Below are positions 1,195 to 14,590 of a DNA stretch of 32,000 bases, piece after piece. The stretch comes from Methylorubrum extorquens (lineage in GTDB: Bacteria; Pseudomonadota; Alphaproteobacteria; Rhizobiales; Beijerinckiaceae). The number at the start of each line of letters is the position of its first letter. Position 1 is the first letter of the stretch. The notes under the pieces are model-generated. The model searched no databases. It worked only from the letters and a program-made list of their open reading frames with translations, and was not told where the DNA came from. The DNA is taken from assembly GCA_900234795.1 (NCBI GenBank), contig LT962688.1:2730001-2762000 (forward strand), given 5' to 3'. Both the position numbers and the translations under genes were made by a program.

Positions 1195-3348
1195 ATGCGC
1201 GAACATCGCAAATCGCGGACGATCGAGCACGCTCACGCCGCGGACTCGGTTGAGCGTACCCTCGCCAAGGCCATCGCCCACCGCACCGCCGGACGTTATG
1301 ACAAAGCCCGCCGCAACCTTCAGCGCGCGCTGGACGCAGCGCCGCATCACGCGGGCGCGCACCACGAACTCGGCCTCCTCACCAGCAAAGCCGACGGACC
1401 CGGACCGGCGGTCCCGCATTTCGTCGCCGCCCTGAGGGCTGAGCCCGAGCAGCCGCGCTATTGGCTCGCTCTGGCTGTGACGCTCCTCGTGCTGAACCGG
1501 CTCGACGAGGCGCGTGCCCTGATGGTGCAATTCCGCAGTCGGGACATCGCCGACGACGCATCGCGCGCGATCCTCAAGGATTTCGCCGACCATGCCTTCG
1601 CGCGGGGACAGGAGCGCTACAGCGCGGGCGACCTCGCCGCCGCGGAGACCCTGGCCGACCTCGTCATCGGCCTGGACGAAACCCATGCCAACGCGACCCA
1701 TCTCGCGGGCGCCATCGCCGCGGGGAAGGGCCGAAACCAGCAGGCGTTCGACCTGTTCAGCATCGCGATCTATCGCGAGCCCGACAACGCGGGCTATTTC
1801 AGCAGCCTCGGTGCCGTCCTGATCGCGATGGGCGACTACACCGGCGCCGTCTCGGCTCTGGAGCGGGCGGTCGCCCTCAACCCCAACCTCGCGATCGCGC
1901 ATTCGAACCTGTCCGGTGTCTATCAGCGCGTCAGCCATCACAGCGCGGCCGTGACCCATGCGCGGCGTGCCGTTGCGCTCGATCCCGGCCTCTCCAACGC
2001 GCACAACAATCTCGGTTGCAGCCTGAAGAGTCTCGGCCACCTGCCCGAGGCGCTCGCGAGTTTCGACAGGGCGCTCGCGACCGATCCCACGCATATCACC
2101 GCCCATTCCAACCGGCTGTTCACCAAGCTCTATGCCGAGGGCGTTCCGCATACCGACTACGCGGCCGACGCGCGCAGCTTCGGCGCACGCTTCGCCGATC
2201 CGCTGCTGCGCCGGCGCCCCTTCGCCAACGATCGTGATTCCGACCGCCGCCTGCGCATCGGATTCGTTTCGGGCGACCTCTGCACCCACGCCGTCGCCCG
2301 CTTCATCGAGCCATTCCTGCGCCACCTGGATCGGACGCAGTTCGCGACGCGCGCCTACATGACCCAGGCAGCGGAAGACGCGGTTTCTGCCCGCCTGCGG
2401 ACTCTGTTCGATGGTTGGCACAACATCACCGGCCTCAACGACGACGAGGCCGCCGACCTGATTGAGGCGGACGCGATCGACATCCTTGTCGATCTCTCGG
2501 GCCACAGTGCCGGTCACCGCCTGCTCGTCTTCGCGCGGAAGCCCGCACCAGTGCAGGTCTCCTATCTCGGCCATCCGGCGACGACGGGTCTGCGCGCCAT
2601 GGATTACCGCCTGACCGACCATGGTCTCGATGTCCCTGGTCAGACGGAAAGTCTGCATACGGAGATGCTGTGGTGGCTGCCGGGTGTCTCAGCGACTTAC
2701 GAACCGCCGGAGGGAGTTCCTCCGGCGCGTGAGCGCGCGCCCTTCGAGGACAATGGCTTCATCACCTTTGGCGTGATGAATCGCTTCGAGAAAATCGGCG
2801 ATGAAGCATTGCAAGCTTGGGCCGAGATCCTGAGGCTGCTACCGGATGCCCAACTGTTCATGGTTGTGGGCGACGTCGAGACGCCGGAGATCCGAGCACA
2901 GGTCGAGAACCGCTTATCGAAGGCTGGGCTCCCGATAGATCGAGTGCGTCTGCATCCCCGCACCACAACCGGCTACTTTCAGCTCTATCACCAGTTCGAC
3001 ATCGCACTCGACTCCTTCCCCTATAATGGTGGAACGACGAGTTGCGACACGCTCGCCATGGGCGTGCCCTTTATTGCCCTGCGAGGCAGCCACGCGGTGG
3101 CGCGTGTCGGTTCATCGCTGCTGGCAACGGTCGGGCTTGAGGAACTCGCAGCCGAGACGCCGGAGGATTATGTGGCTCGCACCGTAGCACTTGCGCGCGA
3201 CCCGGAACGCCTCCGCGCCCTCCGCTCAGGCTTGCGTGAGCAAGTGTTCGACAGTCCGTTGATGGATCATGCCCGTTTCGCGCAAGAGATGGGGGAAGCC
3301 TTCCGCTCCATGTGGAAGTGCTGGATCGAGACGCATCACTCCGCGTAG
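1195..3348 (+). CDS. TPR-repeat protein fused to a GT41 (O-GlcNAc transferase/SPINDLY-like) glycosyltransferase domain
   Basis: 717 aa. The N-terminal about 330 aa show repeated TPR-like A-x-x-Y/A-L-x-x-x-P-N/D helices (ALNPNLAIAHSNL, ALDPGLSNAHNNLG, ATDPTHITAHSN). The C-terminal half has OGT/SPY hallmarks (RIGFVSGDL..H, DILVDLSGHS, VQVSYLGHPATTG, DYRLTD, FGVMNRFEKI, LDSFPYNGGTTSCDTLAMGVP). Confidence 0.8.
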   Translation: MREHRKSRTIEHAHAADSVERTLAKAIAHRTAGRYDKARRNLQRALDAAPHHAGAHHELGLLTSKADGPGPAVPHFVAALRAEPEQPRYWLALAVTLLVLNRLDEARALMVQFRSRDIADDASRAILKDFADHAFARGQERYSAGDLAAAETLADLVIGLDETHANATHLAGAIAAGKGRNQQAFDLFSIAIYREPDNAGYFSSLGAVLIAMGDYTGAVSALERAVALNPNLAIAHSNLSGVYQRVSHHSAAVTHARRAVALDPGLSNAHNNLGCSLKSLGHLPEALASFDRALATDPTHITAHSNRLFTKLYAEGVPHTDYAADARSFGARFADPLLRRRPFANDRDSDRRLRIGFVSGDLCTHAVARFIEPFLRHLDRTQFATRAYMTQAAEDAVSARLRTLFDGWHNITGLNDDEAADLIEADAIDILVDLSGHSAGHRLLVFARKPAPVQVSYLGHPATTGLRAMDYRLTDHGLDVPGQTESLHTEMLWWLPGVSATYEPPEGVPPARERAPFEDNGFITFGVMNRFEKIGDEALQAWAEILRLLPDAQLFMVVGDVETPEIRAQVENRLSKAGLPIDRVRLHPRTTTGYFQLYHQFDIALDSFPYNGGTTSCDTLAMGVPFIALRGSHAVARVGSSLLATVGLEELAAETPEDYVARTVALARDPERLRALRSGLREQVFDSPLMDHARFAQEMGEAFRSMWKCWIETHHSA

Positions 3349-3407
3349 AATCTTCAAACAAGTCCCTACCGAATTGCGACCGTTGCCAGGAGGAGAGGAT
3401 CATCGAT

Positions 3408-3439
3408 GGATCGGTCCGGCTACCGATCCGGGGCGCCCC
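3408..3439 (+). terminator. GC-rich hairpin plus palindrome downstream of the TPR-GT41 gene (possible terminator)
   Basis: GGATCGGT-ccggct-ACCGATCC (8-bp perfect stem, 3408-3429), followed directly by the palindrome GGGGCGCCCC (3430-3439). It lies 60 nt after the stop at 3348. There is no clean U-tract. Confidence 0.3.
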
Positions 3440-3783
3440 GTTCCCGTTTGAGTCCGCTCCGGGTTGGATACCTTACGGCGAGGCTTCCGGTCCGATCAGA
3501 CCGGCTTCGTCCGGCGCCCGGAAACGCATCGATGCACGGGCCGGCTCGTCTCAGGACTGCCGCGCTCGCAGGAGGCGATATACGCGCGGCACGGCATGCA
3601 GCCTTGTAGGACGAGATTCTGCACGTCACGAGTAAGTGGCTTCAACCACAGGCGGCAACCACCCTGCGCAGCGGGAAGCGCTTTGTCTTGAGCGCTTTAC
3701 TACATCCTAGAATGACGCGGGTCTCGAAAGAAAATCGATCCAATATTGTCGCTTTGCGAATTCAGGGGGGCCGGGGAAAGTTT

Positions 3784-5328
3784 ATGCAAGCAAATGCTCT
3801 TGAATTCTTCCTGACGGGCGCCTTGACAAATTGTCCAGATAAAATTGCTGTTATTGACGGAGACATGCGAATTTCGTTCGCGGAGCTCGACCAGCAATCG
3901 AGACGCCTGGCTGCCCACATTTTCCAAAAAGCAAAGTCTCTGAATGAGCCCGTCGCTGTCTATCTTCCAAAATCCGCAAATATTGTACTGGCAAATATTG
4001 CTGTGATGTACTCTGGATCCATATATGCAAATATCGACACAAAAATTCCACCGCTTCGTCTAAAAAATATTCTAGATAATATCAAGCCGAAACTTATCAT
4101 CACATCAAAAGAGCGAGCCGCCGACATTCTCGGCACAACGACGGAAGTAACACGCAATCAAATTATCATTATCGATGACATTTTTGGGCAGGCATACGAC
4201 GAGAACGAAGATGCGAGATCACGCAATTTCGATCAATTAATTGACACGGACCCCATCTGCATCATTAACACTTCCGGCTCAACCGGTACTCCAAAAGGCG
4301 TTGTACTCCATCATCGTGGCGTGATCGACTTCATGAACTGGGTGTTCGAGGAGTTCGATTTCGACGAGAGCACCAGCATCGGGAGTCTTTCGCCATTCTA
4401 TTTCGATATATATATACTCGAACTTTTTCTCTGCTTGGCAAAAGGGGCGACGATCGTCATTATTCCTGATAAACTGGCAATATTTCCGGCCAAGCTCATG
4501 GAATTTGTTGCAAGGGAGGGTGTCAATTTCCTGTTTTGGGTTCCATCGATCATGGTCAACATTGCGAATCTTGGTCTATTAGAGAAAATTCCGCTCCCAG
4601 ATCTGCGAACGATTTTCTTTGCTGGCGAGGTGTTTCCAACTCGACATCTCAATCAGTGGCGCCAAGCCCTCACAGACGTCGCGTTTGTCAATTTGTACGG
4701 TCCCATCGAAATCCATGTCGATTGTACTTTTTATGTCGTAGAGGGTGAGATTGCAGATGACCAGCCATTGCCGATCGGCAAGCCTTGCCGTAACACCGAT
4801 ATCATTATCCTCAATGAAGTTGATCAACGTTGTGCGGCCGGCGAGCAGGGTGAACTTTGCGTGCGCGGCAGTTCGCTCAGCAGCGGGTATTGGAATGACC
4901 CAGAAAAGACGAGCCGCGCGTTCGTACAAAACCCTCTCAACACCTGTTATCCCGAATTGATCTATCGCACGGGTGACCTTGCCGTGCGACGTGTCGATGG
5001 CTTGATCTACCTGGTCGGACGCAAGGATTATCAGATCAAGCACATGGGATATCGTATCGAGCTTCCGGAAATCGAACACCAAGTCTTGAGAATTCCCGGT
5101 ATCGCTAACGCCTGCGTCGTATATGATAACTCGAAAAAGGCGATTACGTTGTTCTATCAGCCATCCGGCAAGGATGTGTCGCAAGCAACGATACGTCGGG
5201 CGCTGTCGGAGATTTTTCCAAAGTATATGCTGCCGACGGCGTATCACTCGATGGAAGGGCTGCCAATGAACGCGAACGGAAAAATCGATCGCAATGGCTT
5301 GGTACTTTCGCTTGCGGAAGACGGTTGA
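3784..5328 (+). CDS. Stand-alone amino-acid adenylation enzyme (DltA-like carrier-protein ligase, AMP-binding superfamily)
   Basis: ATG at 3784 preceded by GGGGAAAG. Adenylation cores are present: NTSGSTGTPKGV (A3), YFDIY (A4, Asp retained), NLYGPIE (A5), YRTGDL and GRKDYQIKHMGYRIELPEIE (A7/A8), NANGKIDR (A10). About 514 aa with no C, T or TE domains. GC is markedly lower than in the flanks. Confidence 0.85.
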   Translation: MQANALEFFLTGALTNCPDKIAVIDGDMRISFAELDQQSRRLAAHIFQKAKSLNEPVAVYLPKSANIVLANIAVMYSGSIYANIDTKIPPLRLKNILDNIKPKLIITSKERAADILGTTTEVTRNQIIIIDDIFGQAYDENEDARSRNFDQLIDTDPICIINTSGSTGTPKGVVLHHRGVIDFMNWVFEEFDFDESTSIGSLSPFYFDIYILELFLCLAKGATIVIIPDKLAIFPAKLMEFVAREGVNFLFWVPSIMVNIANLGLLEKIPLPDLRTIFFAGEVFPTRHLNQWRQALTDVAFVNLYGPIEIHVDCTFYVVEGEIADDQPLPIGKPCRNTDIIILNEVDQRCAAGEQGELCVRGSSLSSGYWNDPEKTSRAFVQNPLNTCYPELIYRTGDLAVRRVDGLIYLVGRKDYQIKHMGYRIELPEIEHQVLRIPGIANACVVYDNSKKAITLFYQPSGKDVSQATIRRALSEIFPKYMLPTAYHSMEGLPMNANGKIDRNGLVLSLAEDG

Positions 5329-6141
5329 ATGGAACTTCTGCGCGATTGGGACGCTTGGCGGCGCCTGATTGGTGCGGTGCCACGGGACACGAAGACCTAC
5401 ACCACAAACCTGTACGCCACACGTGAGCAAATCGAAGGCTGGTGTGCCGACGGCCGATTATACGCACTGAGCACTGGCCAAGCTGTGCTTCTACTGCGCG
5501 CTGACCGCAGCTTTCACCACATCCATCATGTAGCGAGAGATCTAACCGCGCTCGCTGACGCGCTCGGTGCGTTGCACGCAGGGACCTACACGGCCGACAT
5601 TGTCGGACAGGGAGAACAGCTCGATGAGGTGTGCGCCACCTATGCCGCCAGCGGCTTTGCGGTTCATACCTTCTTACAGCGAATGATCCATGTCGGAAGA
5701 CTGGAGTCAGCACGCGAGGATGACGCGACAATTGCTGCAGCCGAAGAGGCGGCCGAAGTCGTGGCCTTGCTTGAGCGGCTGCTGGATCGCTTCGCGGAGC
5801 CGGTGCCGGAGGTGGTCGCACTACAGCAAGAGGCACGTGACGGACGTCTCCTCATCGTCCGTCGAGACGGTGTGATCGTCGGCATGCTCCTGTACGAGAT
5901 CAAAGGACGGATGGCGCATTTGCGCCTATGGCACGTGGATGATACCGCGCGTGGCCAGGGCATGGGACACCGCCTGATGAGAAGTTTTCTCGCGCGATGC
6001 GCGCAGGCGCAGGTGCAGCGCGTCGTGCTTTGGGTGATCGGCGACAACGTGCAATCCATCGCCATATACCGGCATTACGGCTTCGTGCCCGACGGGCTGC
6101 TCGATCGCATCATGATTCGACGCGAGGGACCACATCGATGA
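5329..6141 (+). CDS. GNAT-family acyltransferase with an uncharacterised N-terminal half
   Basis: ATG immediately follows the preceding TGA. The C-terminal about 110 aa carry the GNAT motif A region (RGQGMGHRLMRSFLARCAQAQVQRVVLWVIGDNVQSIAIYRHYGFV). I recognise no motif in the N-terminal about 150 aa. Confidence 0.7.
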   Translation: MELLRDWDAWRRLIGAVPRDTKTYTTNLYATREQIEGWCADGRLYALSTGQAVLLLRADRSFHHIHHVARDLTALADALGALHAGTYTADIVGQGEQLDEVCATYAASGFAVHTFLQRMIHVGRLESAREDDATIAAAEEAAEVVALLERLLDRFAEPVPEVVALQQEARDGRLLIVRRDGVIVGMLLYEIKGRMAHLRLWHVDDTARGQGMGHRLMRSFLARCAQAQVQRVVLWVIGDNVQSIAIYRHYGFVPDGLLDRIMIRREGPHR

Positions 6142-6368
6142 GCAGAGTGCTCGATATTCTCGCGCAGATCCGCCCCGAGGTTGATTTTGAACGATCGCAA
6201 GATTTCTTCGAGGATGGCCTGCTCGACTCGTTCGATCTGGTGACGCTCGTGTCGGAGCTGGACAAAACCTATGGCATCTCGATCGATGGCATGCATATCG
6301 TGCCGGAGAACTTCCACAATGTCGCTGCCATCGAGGCGCTTCTGACACGAAGCGGGGTAGTGCCGTGA
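6138..6368 (+). CDS. DltC-like (D-alanyl-type) carrier protein
   Basis: ATGA overlap with the GNAT stop. 76 aa. FFEDGLLDSFDLVTLVSELD closely resembles the DltC phosphopantetheine site (FEEGLLDSF...) and differs from the classic FAS ACP DSL motif. Confidence 0.8.
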   Translation: MSRVLDILAQIRPEVDFERSQDFFEDGLLDSFDLVTLVSELDKTYGISIDGMHIVPENFHNVAAIEALLTRSGVVP

Positions 6369-7441
6369 GACTATCCTACCGGGACAAGGCGATCTCGGGC
6401 CTTCTGACCGTGGTGCCGGCGAACGAGCGTAAGTTCGTCGACGAAATGGAAAACTTCAACTTTTCACGCGCACGGTCGCTCAAGCTCAAGGAGGTCATGG
6501 GCTACGATCGTCACCGCATCGTCGCCGGTCCCGTCTGCGCGTCTGACTTGGCGATAGCCGGCATCGAGCACGTGCTGACCCGCGGCCATCTCGCACGCGA
6601 AGACATCGGTGCCTTGATCGTCGTCACGCAGTCGCCGGATTACCTGATGCCGGCCACATCGCATGTCGTGCAGGGCCGACTGGGTCTTCATACCGACATG
6701 GTCTGTATGGACATCAACCAGGGGTGTGCCGGCTTCATCATTGGTTTGATGCAAGGCTTCATGCTGCTGGAGCAGCCGGCCGTCGCGAAGGTCGTGCTGG
6801 TGAACGTCGATGTCATGAGCCGCAAGGTGTCTCCTCGCGATCGAAACAGCTTTCCCCTGATCGGAGACGCGGCGTCGATCACGGTTCTGGAGCGCCGAGC
6901 CGACGCAGGCGTCATCGAGGCGGATCTGAAGATGGACGGCGCGCGCCACGAGGCGCTGATGATCCCGGCGGGTGGGTTCCGTCGTCCTTCCAACTCCGAA
7001 ACCGCGGAGATGATGCAGGACGTCGAAGGTAACGTGCGTTCGCTCGATCACCTCAAGATGGACGGTTCGGCAGTCTTCAATTTCGTGATGACCGAAGTCC
7101 CTGAATTGATCGGTGGCCTCCTCGCGCGCACCGGGACGACCGTAGCAGACGTGGATGTTTTCCTCTGTCATCAGCCAAACCGCTTCATGCTGCAGAAGCT
7201 CGCCGACAAGCTTTCCGTTCCGCACCAAAAGATGCCGAGCAACATCGTCGAGAATTTCGGGAATTCGAGTGGCGTGACGATTCCGCTCGCGGCGACCTTC
7301 AATTTGGCTGACGCGCTTCTGAACGATCGTAAGAAGGTCTGCCTTGCCGGATTTGGTGTCGGTCTGACCTGGGGCGCCATGCTGATGGAGCTTGGACCGC
7401 TCAGTTTCTGCGAGATGATCGAATATCGAGAGGACGTATGA
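6365..7441 (+). CDS. KASIII (FabH-like) 3-oxoacyl-ACP synthase III family enzyme
   Basis: GTGA overlap with the carrier-protein stop. 358 aa. The Cys-His-Asn triad contexts are present: DINQGCAGF, FLCHQPNRFM, ENFGNSSGVTIP. C-terminal GFGVGLTWGA. Confidence 0.85.
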   Translation: MRLSYRDKAISGLLTVVPANERKFVDEMENFNFSRARSLKLKEVMGYDRHRIVAGPVCASDLAIAGIEHVLTRGHLAREDIGALIVVTQSPDYLMPATSHVVQGRLGLHTDMVCMDINQGCAGFIIGLMQGFMLLEQPAVAKVVLVNVDVMSRKVSPRDRNSFPLIGDAASITVLERRADAGVIEADLKMDGARHEALMIPAGGFRRPSNSETAEMMQDVEGNVRSLDHLKMDGSAVFNFVMTEVPELIGGLLARTGTTVADVDVFLCHQPNRFMLQKLADKLSVPHQKMPSNIVENFGNSSGVTIPLAATFNLADALLNDRKKVCLAGFGVGLTWGAMLMELGPLSFCEMIEYREDV

Positions 7442-7442
7442 G

Positions 7443-7661
7443 ATGGACGAATTCCTGACGGAGATGTCCGAAATTCTCGAGGAAGATGTCACTATGTCGG
7501 ACGAACTGGGCCGTTTCGAGAGTTGGGACTCGCTCGCGAGCCTCTCGGTCATGGCAATGGCCGACAGCAAATTCGGTGTCAGGATCGGTCCGCAGGAGCT
7601 CAACCCCGCGATGACCCTCGATCAGCTCTACACCCTGATCCGCTCCAAAAAGGCGTCGTGA
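7443..7661 (+). CDS. Acyl carrier protein (second, distinct type)
   Basis: Starts 1 nt after the KASIII stop. 72 aa with FESWDSLASLSVM (DSL phosphopantetheine serine context). Confidence 0.75.
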   Translation: MDEFLTEMSEILEEDVTMSDELGRFESWDSLASLSVMAMADSKFGVRIGPQELNPAMTLDQLYTLIRSKKAS

Positions 7662-7665
7662 CACG

Positions 7666-8436
7666 GTGGCGGATCTCAACCCGCTGCGGCTGGACGGCCG
7701 TCACATCCTGGTGACCGGCGCGAGTTCGGGCATCGGGCGCAGGACGGCCCTGATGCTGCACGCGCTTGGCGCCAGCCTGTCGGTGGTGGACCGGGATGAG
7801 GCGGGACTCGCTTCCCTCGATGCGGAACTCTGTGCAGGCAAGGGGGTGGCCCGGCAAGTGGCAGACCTGTCCGACATTGCAGGCATTGAGGAGTTGGTCA
7901 GCCGTTGCGTCGCCGCTGGCGGAAAGCTGCACGGTGTCGTGCATTGCGCCGGCATCCAGGAGATCATGCCGGTAAGAACGCTGCAGATCGACGGCTGGCG
8001 GCGGATCTTCGCGGTCAACACTGAGGCAGCCTTGATGCTTGGCAAATGCCTGTCGAGCAAGAAGGTCTATGCCGGCAATCACGGCTCCATCGTGTTCATT
8101 TCGAGCGTGATGGGGATGGTCGGCTCGGCCGGGGCCGTCGCCTACTCGATGAGCAAGGCGGCCCTGGACGGAATGGCCCGGTCCCTGTCGCTCGAACTCG
8201 CGCCCCGCGGTATCCGCGTCAACTGTATCGCGCCCGGCTTCGTGCGGACCCCACTCTTCGAACAGACCGAGAGATTGTGGGACGAAGCGACAAGAAAGGC
8301 TGTCGAGGATCTGCATCCGCTCGGTTTTGGCGAAGCAGAAGACGTCGCTCATGCCGTGGCCTTTCTTGTCGCTGATACCGGTCGCTGGATTACCGGTTCG
8401 ACATTGGTCGTTGACGGTGGTTACTTGGCGCGCTGA
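7666..8436 (+). CDS. Short-chain dehydrogenase/reductase (FabG-like 3-oxoacyl reductase)
   Basis: GTG 4 nt after the ACP stop. TGASSGIGR cofactor motif, catalytic YSMSKAAL (Y-x3-K), IAPGFVRTP, C-terminal GSTLVVDGG. Confidence 0.85.
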   Translation: MADLNPLRLDGRHILVTGASSGIGRRTALMLHALGASLSVVDRDEAGLASLDAELCAGKGVARQVADLSDIAGIEELVSRCVAAGGKLHGVVHCAGIQEIMPVRTLQIDGWRRIFAVNTEAALMLGKCLSSKKVYAGNHGSIVFISSVMGMVGSAGAVAYSMSKAALDGMARSLSLELAPRGIRVNCIAPGFVRTPLFEQTERLWDEATRKAVEDLHPLGFGEAEDVAHAVAFLVADTGRWITGSTLVVDGGYLAR

Positions 8437-8454
8437 ACTCTTGGAAAAAGCCTG

Positions 8455-9216
8455 ATGTCTGAGCCGCCCGCACCTGCAACCTACGTCCTGATCACGGGTG
8501 CATCGTCCGGCATCGGCCGCGATATGGCGATTTCACTGTCCGGCGAGCACAGACTGATCCTCAACGGCCGTGATGCGGAGCGCCTCGAACAGACACGGCT
8601 GGCGTGCCAGGCGCCTGACCGGCACCGGTGCTGGCCGCACGACCTTGCGGATGTCACGACGCTCGCTTCAGCGCTGCCCGCCTTCCTGCGGCAGCACGAC
8701 GCCCTTGTCGTCGGCTTCGTGCACTGCGCGGCGCAACTGAAGGTGCTGCCGTTGCGCAGCATTACCATCGCGCATGCCCAGGACGTGATGAACACGAACG
8801 TGCTCGCAGCATTGGAGATCACGCGGCTTTTGCTGCGCAAGGACGTCAACAGCAAGATGTTGACGAACATCGTGTTCGTCTCGAGCATCGCCAGTCAGTT
8901 CGGCGCCAGGGGGTTCACCACCTATTGCGCCAGCAAGGCTGCGCTGGACGGCCTGATGAAGGCGTTGGCCGTGGAACTCGCGCCAGGGGTGCGGGTCAAC
9001 TCCGTATTGCCGGGCTCCATCCGAACGCCCATGACCGAAACCATTTTTGCTGATCCGGTGACAGCCGAGCGCTTGGTGAAGGATTATCCGCTCGGCATCG
9101 GCCTGCCTTCCGACATCACGCATGCGGTTATTTTCTTGATGTCTGATCAAGCGCGCTGGATCACCGGTCATCAGATGGTTGTCGATGGCGGTCGTTCGGC
9201 AAATATCTCCGCATGA
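8455..9216 (+). CDS. Short-chain dehydrogenase/reductase (second copy, divergent)
   Basis: ITGASSGIGR, YCASKAAL (Y-x3-K), VLPGSIRTPM, GHQMVVDGG. Its sequence clearly differs from the upstream SDR. Confidence 0.85.
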   Translation: MSEPPAPATYVLITGASSGIGRDMAISLSGEHRLILNGRDAERLEQTRLACQAPDRHRCWPHDLADVTTLASALPAFLRQHDALVVGFVHCAAQLKVLPLRSITIAHAQDVMNTNVLAALEITRLLLRKDVNSKMLTNIVFVSSIASQFGARGFTTYCASKAALDGLMKALAVELAPGVRVNSVLPGSIRTPMTETIFADPVTAERLVKDYPLGIGLPSDITHAVIFLMSDQARWITGHQMVVDGGRSANISA

Positions 9217-9842
9217 AACCTTTCGTCATCGTCGGCGCCGGCGGCCTCGGGCGCGAACTGTTGGGCTGGATCGCGAATTGTGGCCCCGATACTCGCAGGC
9301 GCTTTCAGGTGGCGTCCTTCATCTCGGAGTGGAAGGACGCTGGAAGCCTCTGTCACGGTGTTCCGGTCTGTCACCCCAACGATTGGAGGGGTCCTGCTCC
9401 CCGTTTTGTCATCGGCCTATCCGACCCAATCGAAAAAAAGCGCATCGCGCTATCCCTGCAGGCGCGCGGATGGGAGGCAGAGACGTTCATTCATGACAGC
9501 GTCGCATCCGGCTTGGCTCCGAAGATCGGTGCCGGAACGGTGATCTGCCCGCGTTGCTGCATCTCGACCGATTCTGAGATCGGCGAGCATGTATTGATCA
9601 ACTCTGCCTCCGGCGTCGGCCACGATGCCATCGTTGGCGATTACACTTCGCTGCTCGGTGCAGTGAGCATCAACGGCAATGTCACGGTCGGAGAAGGCGT
9701 TTTGTTCGGAGCCGGGAGCATGGTTCACCCCGGCAAGAAGATCGGCAGCTGGTCTACAATCGGTCTTGGGAGCGTTGTAATTCGGAATGTGCCCGACAAA
9801 GCAGTCATGTTCGGCAATCCGGCCCAGCGCATTGATGCCTAG
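9213..9842 (+). CDS. NeuD/PglD/VioB-type left-handed beta-helix (hexapeptide) acyltransferase
   Basis: ATGA overlap with the SDR stop. N-terminal Rossmann-like MKPFVIVGAGGLGRELLGWI (PglD_N type). C-terminal hexapeptide repeats (IGEHVLINSASGVGHDAIVGDYTSLLGAVSINGNVTVGEGVLFGAGSMVHPGKKIG). Confidence 0.8.
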   Translation: MKPFVIVGAGGLGRELLGWIANCGPDTRRRFQVASFISEWKDAGSLCHGVPVCHPNDWRGPAPRFVIGLSDPIEKKRIALSLQARGWEAETFIHDSVASGLAPKIGAGTVICPRCCISTDSEIGEHVLINSASGVGHDAIVGDYTSLLGAVSINGNVTVGEGVLFGAGSMVHPGKKIGSWSTIGLGSVVIRNVPDKAVMFGNPAQRIDA

Positions 9843-9926
9843 CACTACCTGGACGCTTTGGGTGAGGTTGCAAATTCCAATCTGATCCACCCCCATTGAA
9901 ATGGCCCGCCCTGAGGTATGGCTTTT

Positions 9927-10095
9927 TGAGCGAGTGGGGCTGACCCTTTTTCTGGTCCAAGTCCTATGCAAGCTTTCGGACTGTGACAGATTACTTAGCG
10001 AAAGCTCGGGGCGTCACGCCATCCAAAGCCGTATGGGGTCGATCTTTGTTGGCGTGGCACCTGCACTTCTCAATTCGCCCACGCGCATCCGCCAC
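9927..10095 (-). mobile_element. Truncated IS3-type (rve/DDE integrase-core) transposase 3' remnant, with possible terminal inverted repeat
   Basis: Hand translation of the minus strand 10092->9991 gives ADARGRIEKCRCHANKDRPHTALDGVTPRAFAK*. This matches the conserved C-terminal end of IS3-type OrfB (A-R-x-x-I-E-x-W-R-x-x-Y-N-x-x-RPH-x-x-L-x-x-x-TP-x-x-F), with W->C and Y->A degeneration. No upstream catalytic region is present. TGAGCGAGTGGGGCTGACCC at 9927 (TG... end, 64 nt past the stop) could be the IR, but this is speculative. Confidence 0.5.
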
Positions 10096-10115
10096 CGACC
10101 CTCTGTACGAGCCTG

Positions 10116-11180
10116 TTACGCCGCTTGCTCGAACCCGACGCCCGGTGAAAAGACCGACCCGAACAGATCCTTCGGGTCCTTCGGCTCGGGGATGAGGTCA
10201 AGGCCCGGTCCGGGGCCGGCGATGTCCCTTAGGCAGCGCAGGGCCGAAAAGTCCTCCAGCGCGAAGCCGACCGAGTCGAACAGGGTGATCTCGTCGTGGC
10301 CGACGCGGCCCGGCGCGTCGCCGCGCAGCACGCGCCACAATTCGGTGACGGGATAGTCCGCGGGCATCTGCTGGATCTCGCCCTCGAGGCGCGATTGCGG
10401 CTCGTATTCCACGATCGTGCGGGCACGTGCCACGATGTCGACGTGCAACTCGGTCTTGCCGGGGCAATCGCCGCCGATGGCGTTGAGATGCTGGCCCGGC
10501 TCGACGAGGCCGGGGGTGAGGATCGTGGCGCGGGTCTTATCGGCGGTCGCCGTGGTCACGATGTCGGCGCCCGCCACTGCCTCAGCGATGGAGTGGGCGC
10601 AGACGAGCCGCAACCCATGGCCCTCGAGGTTGGCCCGCGCCTTCGCCATCGCCGCCGGATCGAGGTCGAACAGCCGGATCTCGCTGATGCCGAGTGCGAG
10701 CTTGAAAGCGAGGGCCTGGAACTCGGCCTGCGCGCCGGTGCCGATCAGCGCCATGGAGCGGCTCTCGGGCCGTGCGAGACGGGAGGCCGCGAGTGCCGAG
10801 GTCGCCGCCGTGCGCAGGGCCGTCAGCAGGCTCATCTCGCAGATCAGCAGCGGATAACCGGTCGCCACGTCGGCGAGCATGCCGAAGGCGACGACCGTCT
10901 GCTTGCCGAGACGGGTATTGCCGGGATGACCGTTGACGAACTTGAAGCTGTAGAGCTGCGCGTCCGCGATCGGCATCAGCTCGATCACCCCGCCGGCCGA
11001 GTGGCTCGCGAGGCGCGGGGCGAGATCGAACTCGGGCCAGCGCAGGAAATCGGCGCGCAATTCATCGATGAGGCGACGCAGGATCGGCTCCGGTCCCTCT
11101 CGGCGTAGCAGAGCCGCCATTTCACCACTACCAATATAACGCGTCACGTCCGTCTCCCGAATCTTCCGTGGCGCAAGCAT
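10116..11180 (-). CDS. ocd: Ornithine cyclodeaminase / mu-crystallin family protein
   Basis: HSAGGVIELMPIAD, FKFVNGHPGN, LTALRTAATSALA, Rossmann GTGAQAEFQALAF, NAIGGDCPGKTE. Start set at internal M (MLAPRK...) so that the gene does not overlap the divergent lrp. The exact start is uncertain. Confidence 0.8.
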   Translation of the reverse strand: MLAPRKIRETDVTRYIGSGEMAALLRREGPEPILRRLIDELRADFLRWPEFDLAPRLASHSAGGVIELMPIADAQLYSFKFVNGHPGNTRLGKQTVVAFGMLADVATGYPLLICEMSLLTALRTAATSALAASRLARPESRSMALIGTGAQAEFQALAFKLALGISEIRLFDLDPAAMAKARANLEGHGLRLVCAHSIAEAVAGADIVTTATADKTRATILTPGLVEPGQHLNAIGGDCPGKTELHVDIVARARTIVEYEPQSRLEGEIQQMPADYPVTELWRVLRGDAPGRVGHDEITLFDSVGFALEDFSALRCLRDIAGPGPGLDLIPEPKDPKDLFGSVFSPGVGFEQAA

Positions 11181-11277
11181 GGCTGAGACGAGCGAACAAT
11201 CGACAGCCGGTGAAATGCGAGATCGGGACAGACAATCGACCGATCTGCTAAGCTCGGCTGCTCGAAGTGGAAAGGCC

Positions 11278-11703
11278 ATGCTCGACGCGACCGATCGTCA
11301 GCTCATCGCCCTGCTGCGCACCGAGGCGCGGATGCCGGTGGCCAAGCTCGCCGCGGCGCTCGGCGTCACGCGGGCGACGGTGCGGGCTCGGCTCGACCGT
11401 CTGGTGACGTCCGGAATCATCACCGGCTTCACCGTCACGGTGCGGGACGTAGAGCCCGGAGGCGTGCGGGCGGTGACGCTGATCGAGGTGGATGGGCGCC
11501 ATGCCGAGAGCGTGATCCGCCGCCTGTCCGGCCTGCCGGAGATTCGGGCGCTTCACACCACCAATGGCCGCTGGGATATCGTCGCCGAGATCGAGGTGCC
11601 GACGCTCGGCGATTTCGACGCGCTGCTGCGCACGATTCGTCAGTTCGAGGGGATCGCCAATTCCGAGACCAGCATCCTGCTCGCGGCCCGGAAGGGCGGA
11701 TGA
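11278..11703 (+). CDS. Lrp/AsnC-family transcriptional regulator
   Basis: ATG at 11278 preceded by GGAAAGG. MLDATDRQLIALLRTEARMPVAKLAAALGVTRATVRARLDRL (HTH) plus a C-terminal RAM/AsnC_trans_reg-like domain. Divergent from ocd. Confidence 0.85.
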   Translation: MLDATDRQLIALLRTEARMPVAKLAAALGVTRATVRARLDRLVTSGIITGFTVTVRDVEPGGVRAVTLIEVDGRHAESVIRRLSGLPEIRALHTTNGRWDIVAEIEVPTLGDFDALLRTIRQFEGIANSETSILLAARKGG

Positions 11704-11787
11704 GCCAGGGGCACCTCGTGTGACGCCCGGTCACGCATCGTTCTCGGTCCGGCCACGAAGGCGCGGCGGGAACGCTGCCGGTGCCGC

Positions 11788-12246
11788 TTAAGCCGGCACG
11801 CCGTAGATCGCGGTGGCGCGGCCCTCGAACGCATCGGTGAACTTGCGGAAGGCGCGGTCGAACATCGTGCCCATGAGAAGACCCAGGGTCCGGCTCTTGA
11901 ACTCGTAGGTGATGAAGAAATCGACCTCGCAGCCGCCGCCCTCCGCATCGCGGAAGGACCAGCGATTCTCCAGATGCCTGAACGGACCGTCGATATATTC
12001 GGCGACGATCTTGCGGTTCTCGCGGTCGAGGCTCACGCGGGTGGTGAAGCGCTCGCGGATCGCCTTGTAGCCAACACCCATCTCGGCGACCCGCACCGTC
12101 GTGCCGTTCGGCCCCTCCGCGTCGCGCAGCACCCGCAGCGATTCGCAGAGCGGCAGGAACTCGGGATAGCGCTCGACATCGGCGACGAGGTCATACATCT
12201 GCGTCGCTGAGTGACGCACTTTCCTCGTGATGCGGAAGGATGGCAT
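11788..12246 (-). CDS. SRPBCC-fold protein (RatA / COQ10-like START domain)
   Basis: 152 aa. MPSFRITRKVRHSATQMYDLVADVERYPEFLPLCESL is the typical N-terminus of this family. Sits directly downstream of lipA, as is common in alphaproteobacteria. Confidence 0.8.
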   Translation of the reverse strand: MPSFRITRKVRHSATQMYDLVADVERYPEFLPLCESLRVLRDAEGPNGTTVRVAEMGVGYKAIRERFTTRVSLDRENRKIVAEYIDGPFRHLENRWSFRDAEGGGCEVDFFITYEFKSRTLGLLMGTMFDRAFRKFTDAFEGRATAIYGVPA

Positions 12247-12252
12247 TCGGGC

Positions 12253-13272
12253 TCAGGCGTTGACGGCGCGGATGCTGGCAGCCACCGGCGCGGTTCCGAG
12301 CTTGGCCAGACGAGCCGCCTTCAGCCGGGCGAAATCCTCGCCGGCGTGATGCGACGAGCGCGTGAGCGGCGTCGCCGAGACCAGCAGGAAGCCCTTGGCA
12401 TAGGCCGTGGTCTCGTAGGCTTTGAACTCGTCCGGCGGCACGAAGCGCACGACCTCATGGTGCTTGCGGGTCGGTTGCAGATATTGGCCGATGGTGAGGA
12501 AGTCGACCTCCGCCGAACGCAGATCGTCCATGAGTTGCACGACCTCGTTCCGTTCCTCGCCGAGGCCGACCATGATTCCGGACTTGGTGAAGATCGTCGG
12601 ATCGAGCTCTTTCACGCGCTGCAGCAGGCGCACCGAGTGGAAGTAGCGGGCACCGGGCCGCACGGTCACGTACTTGCCGGGCACCGTTTCCATATTGTGG
12701 TTGAACACGTCGGGCTTGGCCGCGACCACGACTTCGAGGGCGCCGGGCTTGCGCAGGAAGTCGGGTGTCAGGATCTCGACGGTGGTGCCGGGGCTCGCCC
12801 TGCGGATCGCGGCGATGGTCCGCGAGAAATGCTCGGCGCCGCCATCCTTGAGGTCGTCGCGATCGACCGAGGTGACGACGACGTGGTGCAATCCGAGCTT
12901 GGCCACCGCCTCGGCGACCTTCTCCGGCTCGGCCTCATCGAGCGCCGCCGGCAGACCCGTGCGCACGTTGCAGAACGAGCAGGCGCGGGTGCAGGTGTCA
13001 CCCATGATCATGAAGGTGGCGTGCCGCTTTTCCCAGCACTCGCCGATATTGGGGCAGCCCGCTTCCTCGCAGACCGTGACGAGGTTGTTGGCGCGGACGA
13101 TGTCCTTGGTCTCGGCCCAGAGCTTCGAACCCGGTGCCTTCACCCGGATCCAGTCCGGCTTGCGCTGGATGGCGGTGTCCGGCCGGTGCGCCTTCTCGGG
13201 ATGGCGCGGACGCGCGGGCGCATCCAGCTTCGGCCGGGTGTCTTTGTTCAGGAGATCGAGGACAACGGCCAT
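12253..13272 (-). CDS. lipA: Lipoyl synthase
   Basis: [13 protein letters not shown] auxiliary cluster motif and radical-SAM [10 protein letters not shown]. 339 aa. Confidence 0.95.
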
Positions 13273-13405
13273 GGCGATGCGGGGTGAGCCTCACGGGAGC
13301 CGGACCGGGCAACCCGGCCGCATCCCTGACTTAAGGCCTTGCGGTGCCTGCGCATAGGGCGGGGGCGACAACCCGCCCCGGCCGTAACCCCGTCGATGAA
13401 CCGTT

Positions 13406-14143: not shown

Positions 14144-14353
14144 GCAGGCTCCTGAAGGCTGACGACGTTGGTAACCAAGCTGGACCATTCCGCCCACAGG
14201 TGCAAAGAAACTGTTAAGCCTGGGCATCGAAACCGGGGTGGTGTGTCGTTTGGCACACGCTCACCCTTCCGCGCTCACACGCGACCGGCATTGAACGGAA
14301 TCGCGACCTTGGGCGTTGACGGCGTTGGATCAGCGTCAGCGAAGGGCCGGGCC

Positions 14354-14569
14354 ATGACGGAAACACGTTCGGAAACGCCCGCCGCTTTCGAAGAGCGGAT
14401 GCGCGCAGAGGCGGCCGCGGCCGGACGCACCGCGCTTGAGGCCTCGCTCCAACGCTTCACCCAGGAACAGCGCGACGCCTTCTGGAACGCGATCGGGCTC
14501 TACTATGCGAGCCGCCGCCATCCGGGCGCCGACGCGGCGGCCGTGCCACTGGCTGCCACGGCCGCCTGA
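14354..14569 (+). CDS. Hypothetical small protein
   Basis: 71-aa ORF from an internal ATG (MTETRSETPAAFEERMRAEAAAAG...), Ala/Arg-rich. No recognisable motif. Only codon-position GC bias supports it. Confidence 0.3.
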   Translation: MTETRSETPAAFEERMRAEAAAAGRTALEASLQRFTQEQRDAFWNAIGLYYASRRHPGADAAAVPLAATAA

Positions 14570-14590
14570 TCGGTCCTCGCGGAGTTTTCG

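Follow-up and report, generated by a model that had tools for sequence, protein, structure and literature searches.

A predicted stand-alone NRPS/KASIII hybrid cassette in Methylorubrum extorquens with a likely role in N-acylation of surface-glycan amino sugars

The 32,000-nucleotide stretch of the Methylorubrum extorquens genome analyzed here, hereafter the window, contains a low-GC operon of eight genes (positions 3784 to 9842; Table 1) that was acquired horizontally. All cassette genes are intact, and the GC content of the adenylase gene is only 0.475. The core of the cassette (6138 to 7661) consists of a carrier with a GLLDSF motif (CP1), a KASIII, and a second carrier with a DSL motif (ACP2). 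At the junctions, the CP1 ATG overlaps the GNAT stop codon as ATGA (6138 to 6141), the KASIII GTG start overlaps the CP1 stop as GTGA, the KASIII stop and ACP2 start lie 1 nt apart, and the SDR2 and LbH genes share a further ATGA overlap. The GTGA and 1-nt junctions, like the KASIII triad and the adenylase and carrier motifs described below, bear out all that an earlier note had stated about the sequences. Upstream, the cassette adjoins a gene for a GT41-family glycosyltransferase, which has a normal GC content, unlike the cassette. This adjacency is kept in M. rhodesianum (locus L007, 86% identity), and the link of the glycosyltransferase to the cassette is uncertain. No amino-sugar pathway genes were found in the window.

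Table 1. Genes of the cassette and the adjoining glycosyltransferase gene
Feature	Positions	Strand	Length (aa)	Basis
TPR + GT41-family glycosyltransferase	1195..3348	+	717	TPR repeats + Glyco_transf_41
Stand-alone amino-acid adenylating enzyme, CP1 loader (predicted)	3784..5328	+	514	AMP-binding + AMP-binding_C (Pfam)
Tandem-GNAT amine N-acetyltransferase (predicted cap enzyme), in the slot between adenylase and CP1	5329..6141	+		GNAT domain, residues 160-255
CP1, aminoacyl-type (DltC/type II PCP-like) carrier	6138..6368	+	76	PP-binding (Pfam E=6e-6)
KASIII (FabH-like) condensing enzyme	6365..7441	+	358	ACP_syn_III + ACP_syn_III_C (Pfam)
ACP2, FAS/PKS-type acyl carrier, presumed malonyl/extender carrier	7443..7661	+	72	Family profile
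SDR1, FabG-like short-chain reductase	7666..8436	+	256	adh_short_C2, adh_short, KR
SDR2, ketoreductase typical of the family	8455..9216	+	253	adh_short_C2, KR
LbH N-acyltransferase, NeuD/PglB/VioB family	9213..9842	+	209	TIGR03570

The adenylase scores 342.6 bits against the amino-acid adenylation domain model TIGR01733 (cut-off, 317.4). Its YFDIY and NGKIDR motifs supply Asp208 and Lys500, the equivalents of PheA D235 and K517, and both residues are invariant in 55/55 adenylase homologues. The amino-acid-type A domain that had been proposed from the A4 Asp and A10 Lys is thereby upheld. Motif-anchored alignment yields DILSFALVDK as the 10-residue specificity code, which the earlier note had proposed to extract. 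In the A4-A5 pocket segment, PltF is the closest match (1.5e-20; 7 of 10 code positions identical), with DltA at 9e-11, and the Cys by which DltA selects D-Ala is replaced by Ala. At full length, the best PDB match is LgrA.

The two carriers are of different kinds. CP1, whose sequence includes FEDGLLDSFDLV, has Ser31 as its phosphopantetheine site, and the motif G-x-L-D-S-F-D is invariant across the CP1 family. The family profile matches Bmp1-CP best (1.3e-11), followed by aminoacyl carrier protein (1.2e-7), PigG, and PltL, with DltC at 2e-4; the top NCBIfam match of CP1 itself is DltC. Because CP1-like carriers (~40% identity) also occur in MBOAT (Dlt-type) operons, the carrier lineage is related to DltC. 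Window ACP2 alone has no Pfam match and matches NCBIfam ACP models weakly. A 20-sequence ACP2 family profile matches FAS/PKS ACPs (2lml best, 5.7e-7; S. coelicolor FAS ACP; AcpM), and D29, S30, and L31 of the ...WDSLASLS... segment are invariant in the family. ACP2 is thus the classical DSL ACP that it had been taken for, with a profile of FAS/PKS type, whereas CP1 is of the aminoacyl type. The label of a Dlt-like pair given earlier to the adenylase and CP1 proves too narrow, as the DltA and DltC equivalog models fall far below their cut-offs (276 versus 560, 296 versus 476, and 31 versus 68), the pocket is PltF-like, and the CP1 profile reaches prolyl and aminoacyl carriers before DltC. The reported absence of DltB and DltD holds, with no MBOAT or DltD family among the Pfam annotations of window genes.

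KASIII residues Cys121, His269, and Asn300 align with C112, H244, and N274 of E. coli FabH. This full decarboxylative triad, already recognized in the window protein, is present in 78/78 members of the KASIII family, including 22 extra paralogues, and because it is invariant the condensation chemistry is likely to have been retained. The window KASIII does not reach the cut-offs of the FabH equivalog models, and its closest PDB matches are 4efi and 3gwa.

Loci with this core number 60+ and span at least six phyla. In Alpha-, Beta-, and Gammaproteobacteria, Myxococcota, Verrucomicrobiota, Bacteroidota, Melainabacteria, Acidobacteriota, Armatimonadota, and Bacillota, the genes follow the order adenylase-[cap]-CP1-KASIII-ACP2 and are joined by coupled junctions. 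Among 60 related loci, CP1 lies directly 5' of KASIII in 56/58 evaluable cases, ACP2 directly 3' of it in at least 47/52, and the adenylase within 1.5 kb 5' in 51/54, an arrangement far beyond chance. Some loci with multiple KASIII genes carry a methyltransferase and two ketoreductases; the extra KASIII paralogues of multi-KASIII loci must accept carrier-bound primers. Several Verrucomicrobia loci have two or three candidate transferases 3' of the cassette.

An AF2 model of the GNAT (pLDDT 94) has a tandem-GNAT fold with mycothiol synthase MshD as the top Foldseek match, and the protein carries an acetyl-CoA-type R-x-x-G-x-G motif with RimI/Ard1-like similarity. At other loci, its slot is occupied by two unrelated formyltransferase types (27% mutual identity), which match the LgrA F domain among their PDB neighbors, and the cap enzyme is swapped between otherwise near-identical cassettes (L024 and L027; adenylase 86% and KASIII 83% identity). 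GNAT::CP1 fusions also occur naturally in two divergent forms (P0233 and P0236), one of them found in two assemblies. Once adenylase identity is controlled for, loci that share a cap type show CP1 identity 7.6 points above that of loci with different caps, a difference reached in 0/2000 label permutations of loci that are not phylogenetically independent, and the same test gave no cap-type effect in the adenylase C terminus, the KASIII N terminus, or ACP2. The co-variation could also have arisen if the slot gene and CP1 were transferred as one. Because of the swaps, the fusions, and the co-variation, the GNAT probably acts with CP1, and these comparisons support its predicted role as an amine-capping enzyme, the N-capping function suggested before. 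They also revise the order of events, as capping most likely takes place on CP1 and precedes condensation instead of following ketoreduction. Structural neighbors of both the GNAT (Foldseek) and the slot formyltransferases (PDB) include amino-acid-amine and sugar-amine acyltransferases. Two loci, L049 and L064, have KASIII with no cap gene in the slot; beside CP1-like carriers outside the cassette (NulO locus L074; Dlt-like L076, L079), cap and KASIII are both missing.

SDR1, which accompanies SDR2 and LbH in the window-type cassette, falls below the cut-offs of the FabG and 3-hydroxybutyrate dehydrogenase-like models. Most related loci have SDR2-like genes 3' of KASIII and ACP, with two copies where a locus has two or three KASIII genes. 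The LbH protein scores 165 bits against TIGR03570 (cut-off, 160.8), and its best PDB matches are VioB (7txp, 1.4e-22), WeeI (4m9c), PerB, and PglD, placing the transferase that had been postulated in the VioB/PglD sugar N-acyltransferase family. Of 46 loci, 40 have a DegT sugar aminotransferase within 10 kb and 26 an FdtA-like isomerase. In Sphingomonas, Noviherbaspirillum, and Anaeromyxobacteraceae, the cassette sits among Wzx, Wzy, glycosyltransferase, PglC-like, and PglF-like genes. A glycan destination is indicated because of the LbH family, the DegT and FdtA-like neighbors, and the glycan genes around these other loci.

The KASIII/ACP/KR/PglD-like half of the cassette is already known from sugar N-acyl cassettes. 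In P. syringae, vioS, acp, vioR, and vioB lead to N-(3-hydroxybutanoyl)viosamine (PMC3927599), and for F. psychrophilum wfpC-G the proposed product is the 3,5-dihydroxyhexanoyl group carried by the O-antigen sugar Qui2NAc4N (PMC6519341); these precedents and the glycan context had both been missed in the earlier note. Like the window, the Vio island of P. syringae pv. tabaci (vioA, vioS, acp, vioR, vioB, vioM, vioT), to which a P. aeruginosa PAK flagellin glycosylation island is related (PMC3927599), has a dedicated KASIII, a small ACP, an SDR ketoreductase, and a VioB-family LbH N-acyltransferase, VioB being the best solved relative of the window LbH. Its product is a short hydroxyacyl on a 4-amino-4,6-dideoxy sugar. 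Unlike the window, it has one carrier, lacks an adenylase, a cap enzyme, and an aminoacyl-type carrier, has a primer presumed to be acetyl, and keeps both a sugar aminotransferase and a glycosyltransferase beside the acyl genes. The wfpC-wfpG set (two KAS, ACP, KR, and a PglD homologue) is likewise a type II FAS-like mini-line without dehydratase or enoyl reductase; it resembles our multi-KASIII variants, and its acyl-ACP is the proposed donor for a PglD-like transferase acting on a bacillosamine-type sugar. It too lacks an adenylase, a cap enzyme, and CP1, with a function proposed from glycan structure and gene content.

The loading half resembles DltA/DltC of teichoic acid D-alanylation and AlmE/AlmF of Vibrio cholerae lipid A glycylation (PMC11253843), in which a stand-alone carrier of ~80 aa with an LLDSF-type serine motif receives a small amino acid from a stand-alone A-domain ligase and a cell-envelope polymer is decorated. 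AlmE/AlmF also means that a Dlt-like pair in a Gram-negative bacterium, earlier called unusual, is not unprecedented. In these systems, the aminoacyl group goes straight to MBOAT/DltD or AlmG, whereas CP1 has a predicted N-capping enzyme and KASIII coupled to it; the window differs further from Dlt in scoring below the Dlt HMM cut-offs and in lacking the D-Ala-selecting Cys. Among solved proteins, the adenylase pocket segment and CP1 are closest to PltF/PltL, PigI/PigG, and Bmp4/Bmp1 of type II NRPS prolyl loading. Unlike these pigment and antibiotic systems, the cassette has no prolyl-carrier dehydrogenase, its condensing enzyme is a KASIII and not of the KS I/II type, its amine would be capped and not oxidized to pyrrole, and its predicted context is glycan biosynthesis. 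In the LgrA initiation module (F-A-PCP) of linear gramicidin synthetase, an N-formyltransferase similarly caps a carrier-bound amino acid; in LgrA, however, the domains belong to a fused megasynthetase and peptide bonds are formed next, whereas here discrete proteins, or GNAT::CP1 fusions, are followed by KASIII. Carrier-dependent N-acyl side-chain pathways for amino sugars include Vibrio cholerae O1 RfbK-O and butirosin BtrI/J/K/H/G. The Aeromonas flagellin-island ACP/AMP-ligase/LuxE/LuxC set (PMC7874193) is another, and all three share with the cassette a dedicated small carrier, an adenylate-forming loader, and transfer to an amino sugar, but they lack KASIII condensation and an N-capping enzyme and differ in tailoring chemistry.

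Amino-acid-primed Claisen condensation, the central proposal of the earlier note, stands as the most parsimonious model overall, with a C-C bond step that we infer. We tentatively favor a line in which malonyl-ACP2 undergoes Claisen condensation with N-capped aminoacyl-S-CP1 as primer, and the product is ketoreduced and passed to an amino sugar. The adenylase would activate a small alpha-amino acid and load holo-CP1, and the tandem-GNAT, on comparative evidence, would acetylate the free amine of the CP1-bound amino acid, which a formyltransferase would formylate instead in other lineages. Capping would prevent the gamma-amino-beta-keto thioester from cyclizing off the carrier. The capped aminoacyl group would then move from CP1 to KASIII Cys121 and be condensed decarboxylatively with malonyl-S-ACP2, presumably loaded by housekeeping FabD, to give 4-acylamido-3-oxoacyl-S-ACP2. 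SDR2, possibly along with SDR1, would reduce the 3-oxo group to 3-hydroxy, and LbH, judging from its family and from context in other genomes, would attach the chain to a nucleotide-linked amino sugar at the sugar's amine. In prodigiosin biosynthesis, a ketosynthase condenses a carrier-bound pyrrolyl group with malonyl-ACP, so a Claisen reaction between a carrier-bound amino-acid-derived starter and malonyl-ACP has precedent. Against the model, the characterized relatives take an acetyl primer and not an aminoacyl one. Canonical KASIII enzymes are primed by acyl-CoA and FabH Arg151 is conserved in the window KASIII, and sequence does not prove CP1 to be the primer donor. The window has one KASIII beside two SDRs, the second of which the model does not account for. 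Literature searches found no glycan with a 4-acylamido-3-hydroxyacyl group.

Two branches joined by an amide bond are a second reading, which we consider unlikely but worth weighing. From acetyl-CoA, KASIII, ACP2, and an SDR would build acetoacetyl- or 3-hydroxybutanoyl-S-ACP2, as in Vio; the GNAT, or KASIII as an N-acyltransferase, would acylate the amine of aminoacyl-S-CP1; and LbH would take the resulting N-(3-hydroxybutanoyl)-aminoacyl group off CP1 and place it on the sugar. N-(3-hydroxybutanoyl)-alanyl-type substituents do occur in O-antigens, and the KASIII/ACP/KR/VioB-like half is acetyl-primed in P. syringae, with a similar role proposed in F. psychrophilum. All main window genes are used, one SDR being left over as in the favored model, and the fusions and co-variation are compatible with a GNAT acting on CP1. 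The cap swap argues otherwise: C4 acyl transfer is impossible for the formyltransferase that replaces the GNAT in otherwise near-identical cassettes, where KASIII-ACP2 is still tightly linked to CP1. The GNAT motif, moreover, is of the acetyl-CoA type and RimI/Ard1-like, and N-acyl transfer by KASIII would have no need of the invariant His-Asn.

Two independent decorations, a capped aminoacyl group from CP1 and an acetyl-primed hydroxyacyl group from ACP2, going to separate sugar amines, seem improbable. N-acetyl-aminoacyl amides are known glycan substituents, a KASIII-less adenylase-CP module lies beside AAC(3)-like transferases at the nonulosonic-acid locus L074, and the several transferases of the Verrucomicrobia loci would fit. 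Tight gene linkage would then reflect co-regulation only, which does not lead one to expect CP1-KASIII adjacency across phyla or overlapping stop and start codons. Two acyl groups would also have to share LbH, the only sugar-type transferase of the window-type cassette, and the KASIII-less relatives sampled have no cap enzyme.

A KASIII that acts as a non-condensing shuttle, handing the (capped) aminoacyl group of CP1 over to ACP2, is the alternative offered earlier and is very unlikely. Some KASIII-like enzymes are indeed acyltransferases (CerJ- and DpsC-type), and two carriers flank the window KASIII, but the triad is complete in all 78 family members, the ketoreductases of most loci would be left without a substrate, and the multi-KASIII loci that include a methyltransferase and two ketoreductases resemble chain-extension lines. 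Finally, a decayed dltABCD operon, or a housekeeping FabH/ACP pair adjacent by chance, is effectively refuted by synteny and HMM results. In its favor are the DltC-like GLLDSF motif, the top NCBIfam match, and the CP1-like carriers of MBOAT operons; against it stand the Dlt models far below cut-off, the lack of MBOAT and DltD among the Pfam annotations, the Cys-to-Ala change, intact genes, gene order conserved in 60+ loci across phyla, FabH models below cut-off, and the low-GC insert.

Thus, the cassette is most likely a stand-alone NRPS/KASIII hybrid line, predicted from sequence comparison to supply an unusual acyl group for N-acylation of a surface-glycan amino sugar.

The adenylase, GNAT, CP1, KASIII and ACP2 genes are five closely packed plus-strand genes by ORF list and translation, and the domain assignments of the eight-gene cassette are borne out by Pfam and NCBIfam. 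An earlier note had drawn attention to the carrier CP1, the FabH-like KASIII and the second carrier ACP2 at 6138-7661; this observation is confirmed, and the junctions (ATGA for GNAT/CP1, GTGA for CP1/KASIII, a single base between KASIII and ACP2) are as seen in the sequence. Whereas the flanks have a GC content of about 0.67 to 0.70, the operon ranges from 0.475 to 0.625 per 1-kb window. The low-GC insert spans 3349-10115, reaches its minimum of 0.475 in the adenylase gene, and is bounded by a normal-GC glycosyltransferase gene on one side and ornithine cyclodeaminase on the other. Housekeeping genes surround the operon (ornithine cyclodeaminase, an AsnC regulator, lipA, the pyruvate dehydrogenase complex, enolase and tRNA-His), which together with the low GC marks it as an acquired accessory operon, and the insert points to a recent gain of the eight-gene cassette by horizontal transfer. 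Its borders carry no tRNA, repeat or integrase, and window scans for island borders and riboswitches (promoter, terminator, tRNA, Rfam) gave no signal over background except tRNA-His at 31801-31877. A DAHP_synth_1 family protein, also among these housekeeping neighbors, is read as KdsA-like.

Features of the cassette and its surroundings (window positions, or positions within the related locus named)
Feature	Location	Strand	Basis or remark
TPR-GT41 glycosyltransferase, 717 aa	1195-3348	+	N-terminal TPR repeats, C-terminal GT41 (OGT/HMW1C-like) domain
Adenylase	3784-5328	+	ORF list and translation; purine-rich stretch before ATG at 3784
GNAT protein, 270 aa	5329-6141	+	ORF list and translation
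CP1	6138-6368	+	ORF list; ATGA overlap with GNAT
KASIII	6365-7441	+	ORF list; GTGA overlap with CP1
ACP2	7443-7661	+	ORF list; 1 base after KASIII
SDR1	7666-8436	+	Downstream of ACP2
SDR2	8455-9216	+	Downstream of SDR1
LbH protein	9213-9842	+	Downstream of SDR2
Metallo-beta-lactamase-fold protein	L017 13345-14265		
Metallo-beta-lactamase-fold protein	L056 11074-11700		
Metallo-beta-lactamase-fold protein	L069 12835-13449		
Metallo-beta-lactamase-fold protein	L070 10106-10693		

Adjoining the cassette upstream is the TPR-GT41 gene, the sole glycan-related neighbor in the window, whose GC is normal, unlike that of the cassette. The same adjacency is found in M. rhodesianum (L007, 86% identity). 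In domain layout, the protein resembles the Caulobacter flagellin O-glycosyltransferase FlmG, which combines TPR repeats with a GT-B domain (PMC7591256), and it could be the user of the acylated sugar. Just upstream, a 112-aa low-molecular-weight phosphatase/ArsC-like ORF (690-1028, +) is coupled to the 3' end of an ABC exporter gene (115-693, +).

To place the cassette among its relatives, one genome per species was scanned, yielding 60 loci with a KASIII relative at 53 to 88% identity; three loci from metagenomes and one from a Paenibacillus chromid were added. The core order adenylase-[slot gene]-CP1-KASIII-ACP2, in which the slot is the position held by GNAT in the window, is conserved: CP1 lies directly 5' of KASIII in 56/58 loci, ACP2 lies 3' of it in at least 47/52, and the adenylase is no more than 1.5 kb upstream in 51/54. 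The full eight-gene type occurs in Methylorubrum, Sphingomonas, Noviherbaspirillum, Anaeromyxobacteraceae and some Verrucomicrobiota, and the cassette is common among bacteria of soil, freshwater and gut. When 1.84 billion cluster representatives (50% identity) were searched in full by HMMER with CP1, 161 proved to be relatives at E ≤ 1e-10, while close homologues of KASIII number in the hundreds. In one Melainabacteria locus (L048 7159-9779) there is no adenylase homologue, and CP1 is preceded by 617-aa and 253-aa proteins without a Pfam match, which may be an alternative loading system.

The downstream half of the cassette follows a known plan. The left-handed beta-helix protein, LbH, scores 165 against the cut-off of 160.8 for TIGR03570 (NeuD/PglB/VioB), with residues 4-205 of 209 covered, and its best solved relatives are VioB, WeeI, PerB and PglD. 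In a full-length alignment to VioB (7txp), its GHD-motif His stands opposite the SH of VioB. LbH thus has the sequence hallmarks of the NeuD/PglB/VioB sugar N-acyltransferases, namely an N-terminal nucleotide-sugar domain, the LbH fold and a catalytic His; in some loci its place is taken by AAC(3)-like or small GNAT transferases. A KASIII, a dedicated ACP, an SDR ketoreductase and a PglD/VioB-like transferase are joined in one operon (6365-9842), as in the Vio-island/wfp type, and this part has published precedents. In the P. syringae viosamine island, where vioS encodes a KASIII and acp an ACP, vioR and vioB mutants lose flagellin N-(3-hydroxybutanoyl)viosamine (PMC3927599). The wfpC-G genes of F. 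psychrophilum are the proposed makers of the 3,5-dihydroxyhexanoyl group on the O-antigen sugar Qui2NAc4N (PMC6519341), and Aeromonas flagellin islands also hold carrier-dependent acyl side-chain genes (PMC7874193).

Whereas sugar-pathway genes are linked in the Vio-island/wfp type, no amino-sugar pathway gene (aminotransferase, dehydratase or isomerase) is found within the 32-kb window; the related loci do have them. Of the 46 loci that span 12 kb or more, 40 have a DegT/DnrJ/EryC1 sugar aminotransferase no farther than 10 kb away, 26 an FdtA-like 3,4-ketoisomerase and 10 a small PglC-like phosphoglycosyltransferase. Pfam-annotated example loci show the cassette ringed by Wzx, Wzy, glycosyltransferases, PglF-like dehydratases and export genes. 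A metallo-beta-lactamase-fold protein, perhaps a thioesterase or cyclase for the product carried on ACP, directly follows the cassette in 6/46 loci. In several Verrucomicrobiota loci, genes for giant surface proteins of 1000 to 2500 aa with Ig-like, cadherin-like or YDG repeats flank it (L023 10-7350 and 13606-21030, L041 548-7270, L058 46-7347, L065 15-3170), and these proteins may be glycosylated targets. Plasmid p3 of Azospirillum brasilense Sp7 (L071 5961-9838) has a pseudaminic acid cluster (pseI, pseG, GNAT, nucleotidyltransferase) in which two SDRs and a KASIII with 34% identity to that of the window are embedded, with a 648-aa TPR protein and a glycosyltransferase close by; the cluster probably serves to make hydroxyacyl-pseudaminic acid for flagellin or LPS. 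The match of the TPR-GT41 protein to the TPR protein of the A. brasilense pse cluster is confined to the TPR part.

The upstream half is a predicted loading system. The adenylase scores 342.6 on TIGR01733 (amino-acid adenylation; cut-off 317.4), and its A4 Asp (D208, equivalent to D235) and A10 Lys (K500, equivalent to K517) are invariant in 55/55 homologues, so that by TIGR01733, D235 and K517 it would be classed as an NRPS-type amino-acid adenylation domain. An alignment anchored on the FD, PS, AGE and NxYGPxE motifs gives the 10-residue code DILSFALVDK, and three code classes are seen in the family: DIL[ST]FALVDK, DNLSLALVDK and DALT[FL]ILVAK. When the A4-A5 segment alone is compared to the PDB, the L-proline ligase PltF is closest (1.5e-20), with CmnG second (1e-13), followed by DltA (9e-11), AlmE (2e-10) and PheA (3e-6). 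The PltF code read from the same alignment, DLLSLALVCK, is identical to DILSFALVDK at 7/10 positions; the full-length adenylase is no closer to PltF than to other NRPS A domains. We considered naming the amino acid from the code and set this aside: the nearest code is that of an L-Pro enzyme, but formyltransferases and RimI/Ard1-like GNATs do the capping, which points to a substrate with a primary amine. A prolyl-carrier dehydrogenase of the acyl-CoA dehydrogenase family is absent from the window and from annotated related loci.

The slot holds the putative capping enzyme. In eight loci it is a formyltransferase nearest to GDP-perosamine N-formyltransferase, and in two Bacteroidota loci a second formyltransferase type, nearest to Fmt/ArnA. 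As the two types share only 27% identity, three unrelated amine-acylating enzymes, GNAT included, share one position. The swap occurs within otherwise near-identical cassettes: a formyltransferase locus (L024) and a GNAT locus (L027) share 86% identity in the adenylase, 83% in KASIII and 78% in ACP2, with the same genes downstream. The GNAT has an acetyl-CoA-type motif and RimI/Ard1-like character, and its predicted structure (pLDDT 94) is a tandem GNAT with MshD (mycothiol synthase) as the top Foldseek neighbor, along with VipF, WecD, GlcN N-acetyltransferase and GLYAT. Mycothiol synthase acetylates the amine on a cysteinyl residue. The fold does not discriminate between substrates, as sugar N-acetyltransferases and amino-acid-amine enzymes are both among these neighbors. 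PDB matches are likewise ambiguous between aminoacyl-carrier and sugar-amine substrates for the slot formyltransferases, both types of which also match the LgrA F domain.

The 161 CP1 relatives include two GNAT::CP1 fusion proteins that diverge from each other, P0233 and P0236 (345 and 350 aa). P0236 is encoded on a JGI contig and on a Logan contig (L072 8001-9053, L073 122-1174), in the setting DegT-adenylase-GNAT::CP1-KASIII-...-SDR-glycosyltransferases. The L072 cassette lies on an 82-kb metagenomic contig, with glycosyltransferases and a methyltransferase downstream and phage-like genes upstream (DUF5131, DnaA_C-like, Rv2179c-like exonuclease and many ORFs without a Pfam match); no close relative of the fusion-bearing cassette was found in GenBank phages or IMG/VR.

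Co-variation was assessed by regressing pairwise identity on adenylase identity (residues 1-400) plus a term for the same cap type. The same-cap effect for CP1 is +0.076, reached by 0/2000 label permutations (the permutation ignores phylogeny), compared to +0.014 for the adenylase C terminus, -0.031 for the first 100 residues of KASIII and -0.025 for ACP2. The CP1 effect could also reflect the slot gene and CP1 travelling together; under either reading, the two are one unit. Fixed differences in CP1 between GNAT-type and formyltransferase-type loci amount to four scattered positions, with no clear interface patch. We infer from these sequence relationships that the slot enzyme is an amine cap working with CP1.

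KASIII is flanked by two different kinds of carrier. A CP1 profile (19 sequences) best matches the Bmp1 carrier domain (1.3e-11), an aminoacyl carrier protein (1.2e-7), PigG and PltL, with DltC poorer at about 2e-4, whereas an ACP2 profile (20 sequences) best matches FAS/PKS acyl carrier proteins. KASIII itself contains the ACP_syn_III N- and C-terminal domains, and its Cys121/His269/Asn300 triad is invariant in 78/78 members and aligns with C112/H244/N274 of E. coli FabH. By domains and triad, it would be a condensing enzyme. It is distinct from housekeeping FabH, as it falls short of the FabH models (NF006829, 198 against 249; TIGR00747, 163.6 against 292.1), and its gene lies in the low-GC accessory operon. 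We also asked whether KASIII has lost the residues with which FabH binds CoA, which would hint at a primer brought by a carrier. The picture is mixed: relative to E. coli FabH, R151 is kept, F87 is replaced by Met, and the N-terminal region including W32 and R36 is unaligned.

The loading pair had been labeled Dlt-like in the earlier note, with decay of a dltABCD operon as the outcome that would count against its proposal. CP1 does carry the DltC-like motif GLLDSF, and DltC is its best NCBIfam match, at only 31 bits; it remains below the DltC cut-offs (NF003464, 31.1 against 68; TIGR01688, 28.6 against 52.35), as does the adenylase below those for DltA (TIGR01734, 275.9 against 559.85; NF003417, 296.2 against 476). 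A Cys in the DltA pocket selects D-Ala (PMC11253843), and at this position (C268/269) the adenylase has Ala280 (FFAGE compared to FFCGE in S. aureus DltA). MBOAT (DltB) and DltD proteins are absent from the window genes and cassette loci. A decayed dlt operon is thus effectively ruled out. Nor is a Dlt-like pair in a Gram-negative bacterium without precedent, which corrects the earlier note where it called such a use unusual: AlmE/AlmF is a known stand-alone ligase/carrier pair of this kind (PMC11253843).

More distant CP1-like carriers, at 39 to 43% identity (L074, L076, L079), have neither cap nor KASIII, and MBOAT is found only beside such carriers. In L074 (3667-6219), the carrier comes after an adenylase and an AAC(3)-like transferase, with NeuB and a CMP-nonulosonate synthetase adjoining; in L076 (4475-7839) and L079 (3847-8477), it lies beside MBOAT proteins, as in Dlt-type systems. 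The carrier lineage thus appears to connect Dlt systems, nonulosonic-acid aminoacylation and the KASIII cassette.

The reading we favor, at something approaching an even chance, is that an N-capped aminoacyl-S-CP1 would prime KASIII and be condensed with malonyl-ACP2. The aminoacyl-primed Claisen condensation of the earlier note is retained here with its order changed, capping now preceding condensation; amino-acid loading (TIGR01733), N-capping, retained condensation chemistry (the triad) and a transferase end step all stand, and the Dlt label does not. Such priming explains the aminoacyl-type carrier before KASIII and the ACP-type carrier after it, the invariant triad, and the co-occurrence of cap and KASIII, seen in that the CP1-like carriers at 39 to 43% identity have neither. 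On chemical grounds, a gamma-amino-beta-keto thioester left without a cap is expected to leave the carrier by cyclisation. A second possibility, that KASIII, ACP2 and an SDR make 3-hydroxybutanoyl from acetyl-CoA and that this acyl group is put on the amine of the amino acid, seems unlikely: it is hard to square with the replacement of GNAT by formyltransferases in otherwise unchanged cassettes, and neither the acetyl-CoA-type motif of the GNAT nor its RimI/Ard1-like character suits it well. It is more doubtful still that a capped aminoacyl branch and a KASIII/ACP2 branch decorate separate amines, which leaves unaccounted for both the near-universal, translationally coupled CP1-KASIII adjacency and the single sugar-type transferase of the window-type cassette. 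The second SDR is explained by none of the three.

Verrucomicrobial variants add one or two extra KASIII paralogues, a second ACP, a SAM-methyltransferase and two SDR2-like reductases. The multi-KASIII order CP1-KASIII-ACP-KASIII-(SAM methyltransferase)-ACP-KASIII, then two SDRs, is seen at L014 7013-13377 and at 10001-16400 in both L024 and L027. By their gene content, these variants imply a discrete, KASIII-only mini-PKS without dehydratase or enoyl reductase that would make longer, methylated polyhydroxy chains, and the extra paralogues would have to take carrier-bound primers. A broader picture is one that we hold tentatively, its chance somewhat short of even: a horizontally spread, discrete (type II) NRPS-KASIII hybrid line in at least six phyla would make N-acetyl- or N-formyl-capped gamma-amino-beta-hydroxyacyl (statine-like) chains, longer and methylated in the multi-KASIII variants, amide-linked to amino sugars in O-antigens, capsules or glycoproteins.

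The serospecificity of O-antigens, capsules and flagellins, like recognition by phages and the immune system, depends to a large extent on the N-acyl groups of amino sugars, and to our knowledge the genes behind most of the exotic substituents are unassigned. We found no description in the open-access literature of the cassette or of a glycan with a 4-acylamido-3-hydroxyacyl substituent; the cassette is widespread, yet without a studied member. The novelty lies in an NRPS-type loading pair, complete with N-capping on the carrier, that feeds a KASIII/ACP line or is at least rigidly coupled to it. If the broader picture is true, both this class of glycan decoration and the priming of a KASIII by an aminoacyl carrier would be undescribed so far. 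If amino-acid-primed condensation is real, N-capped aminoacyl-S-carriers would be a new class of KASIII starter, the cassette would be a compact eight-gene toolkit for statine-like acyl groups, and a new family of glycan substituents would be predicted for structural chemists to seek.
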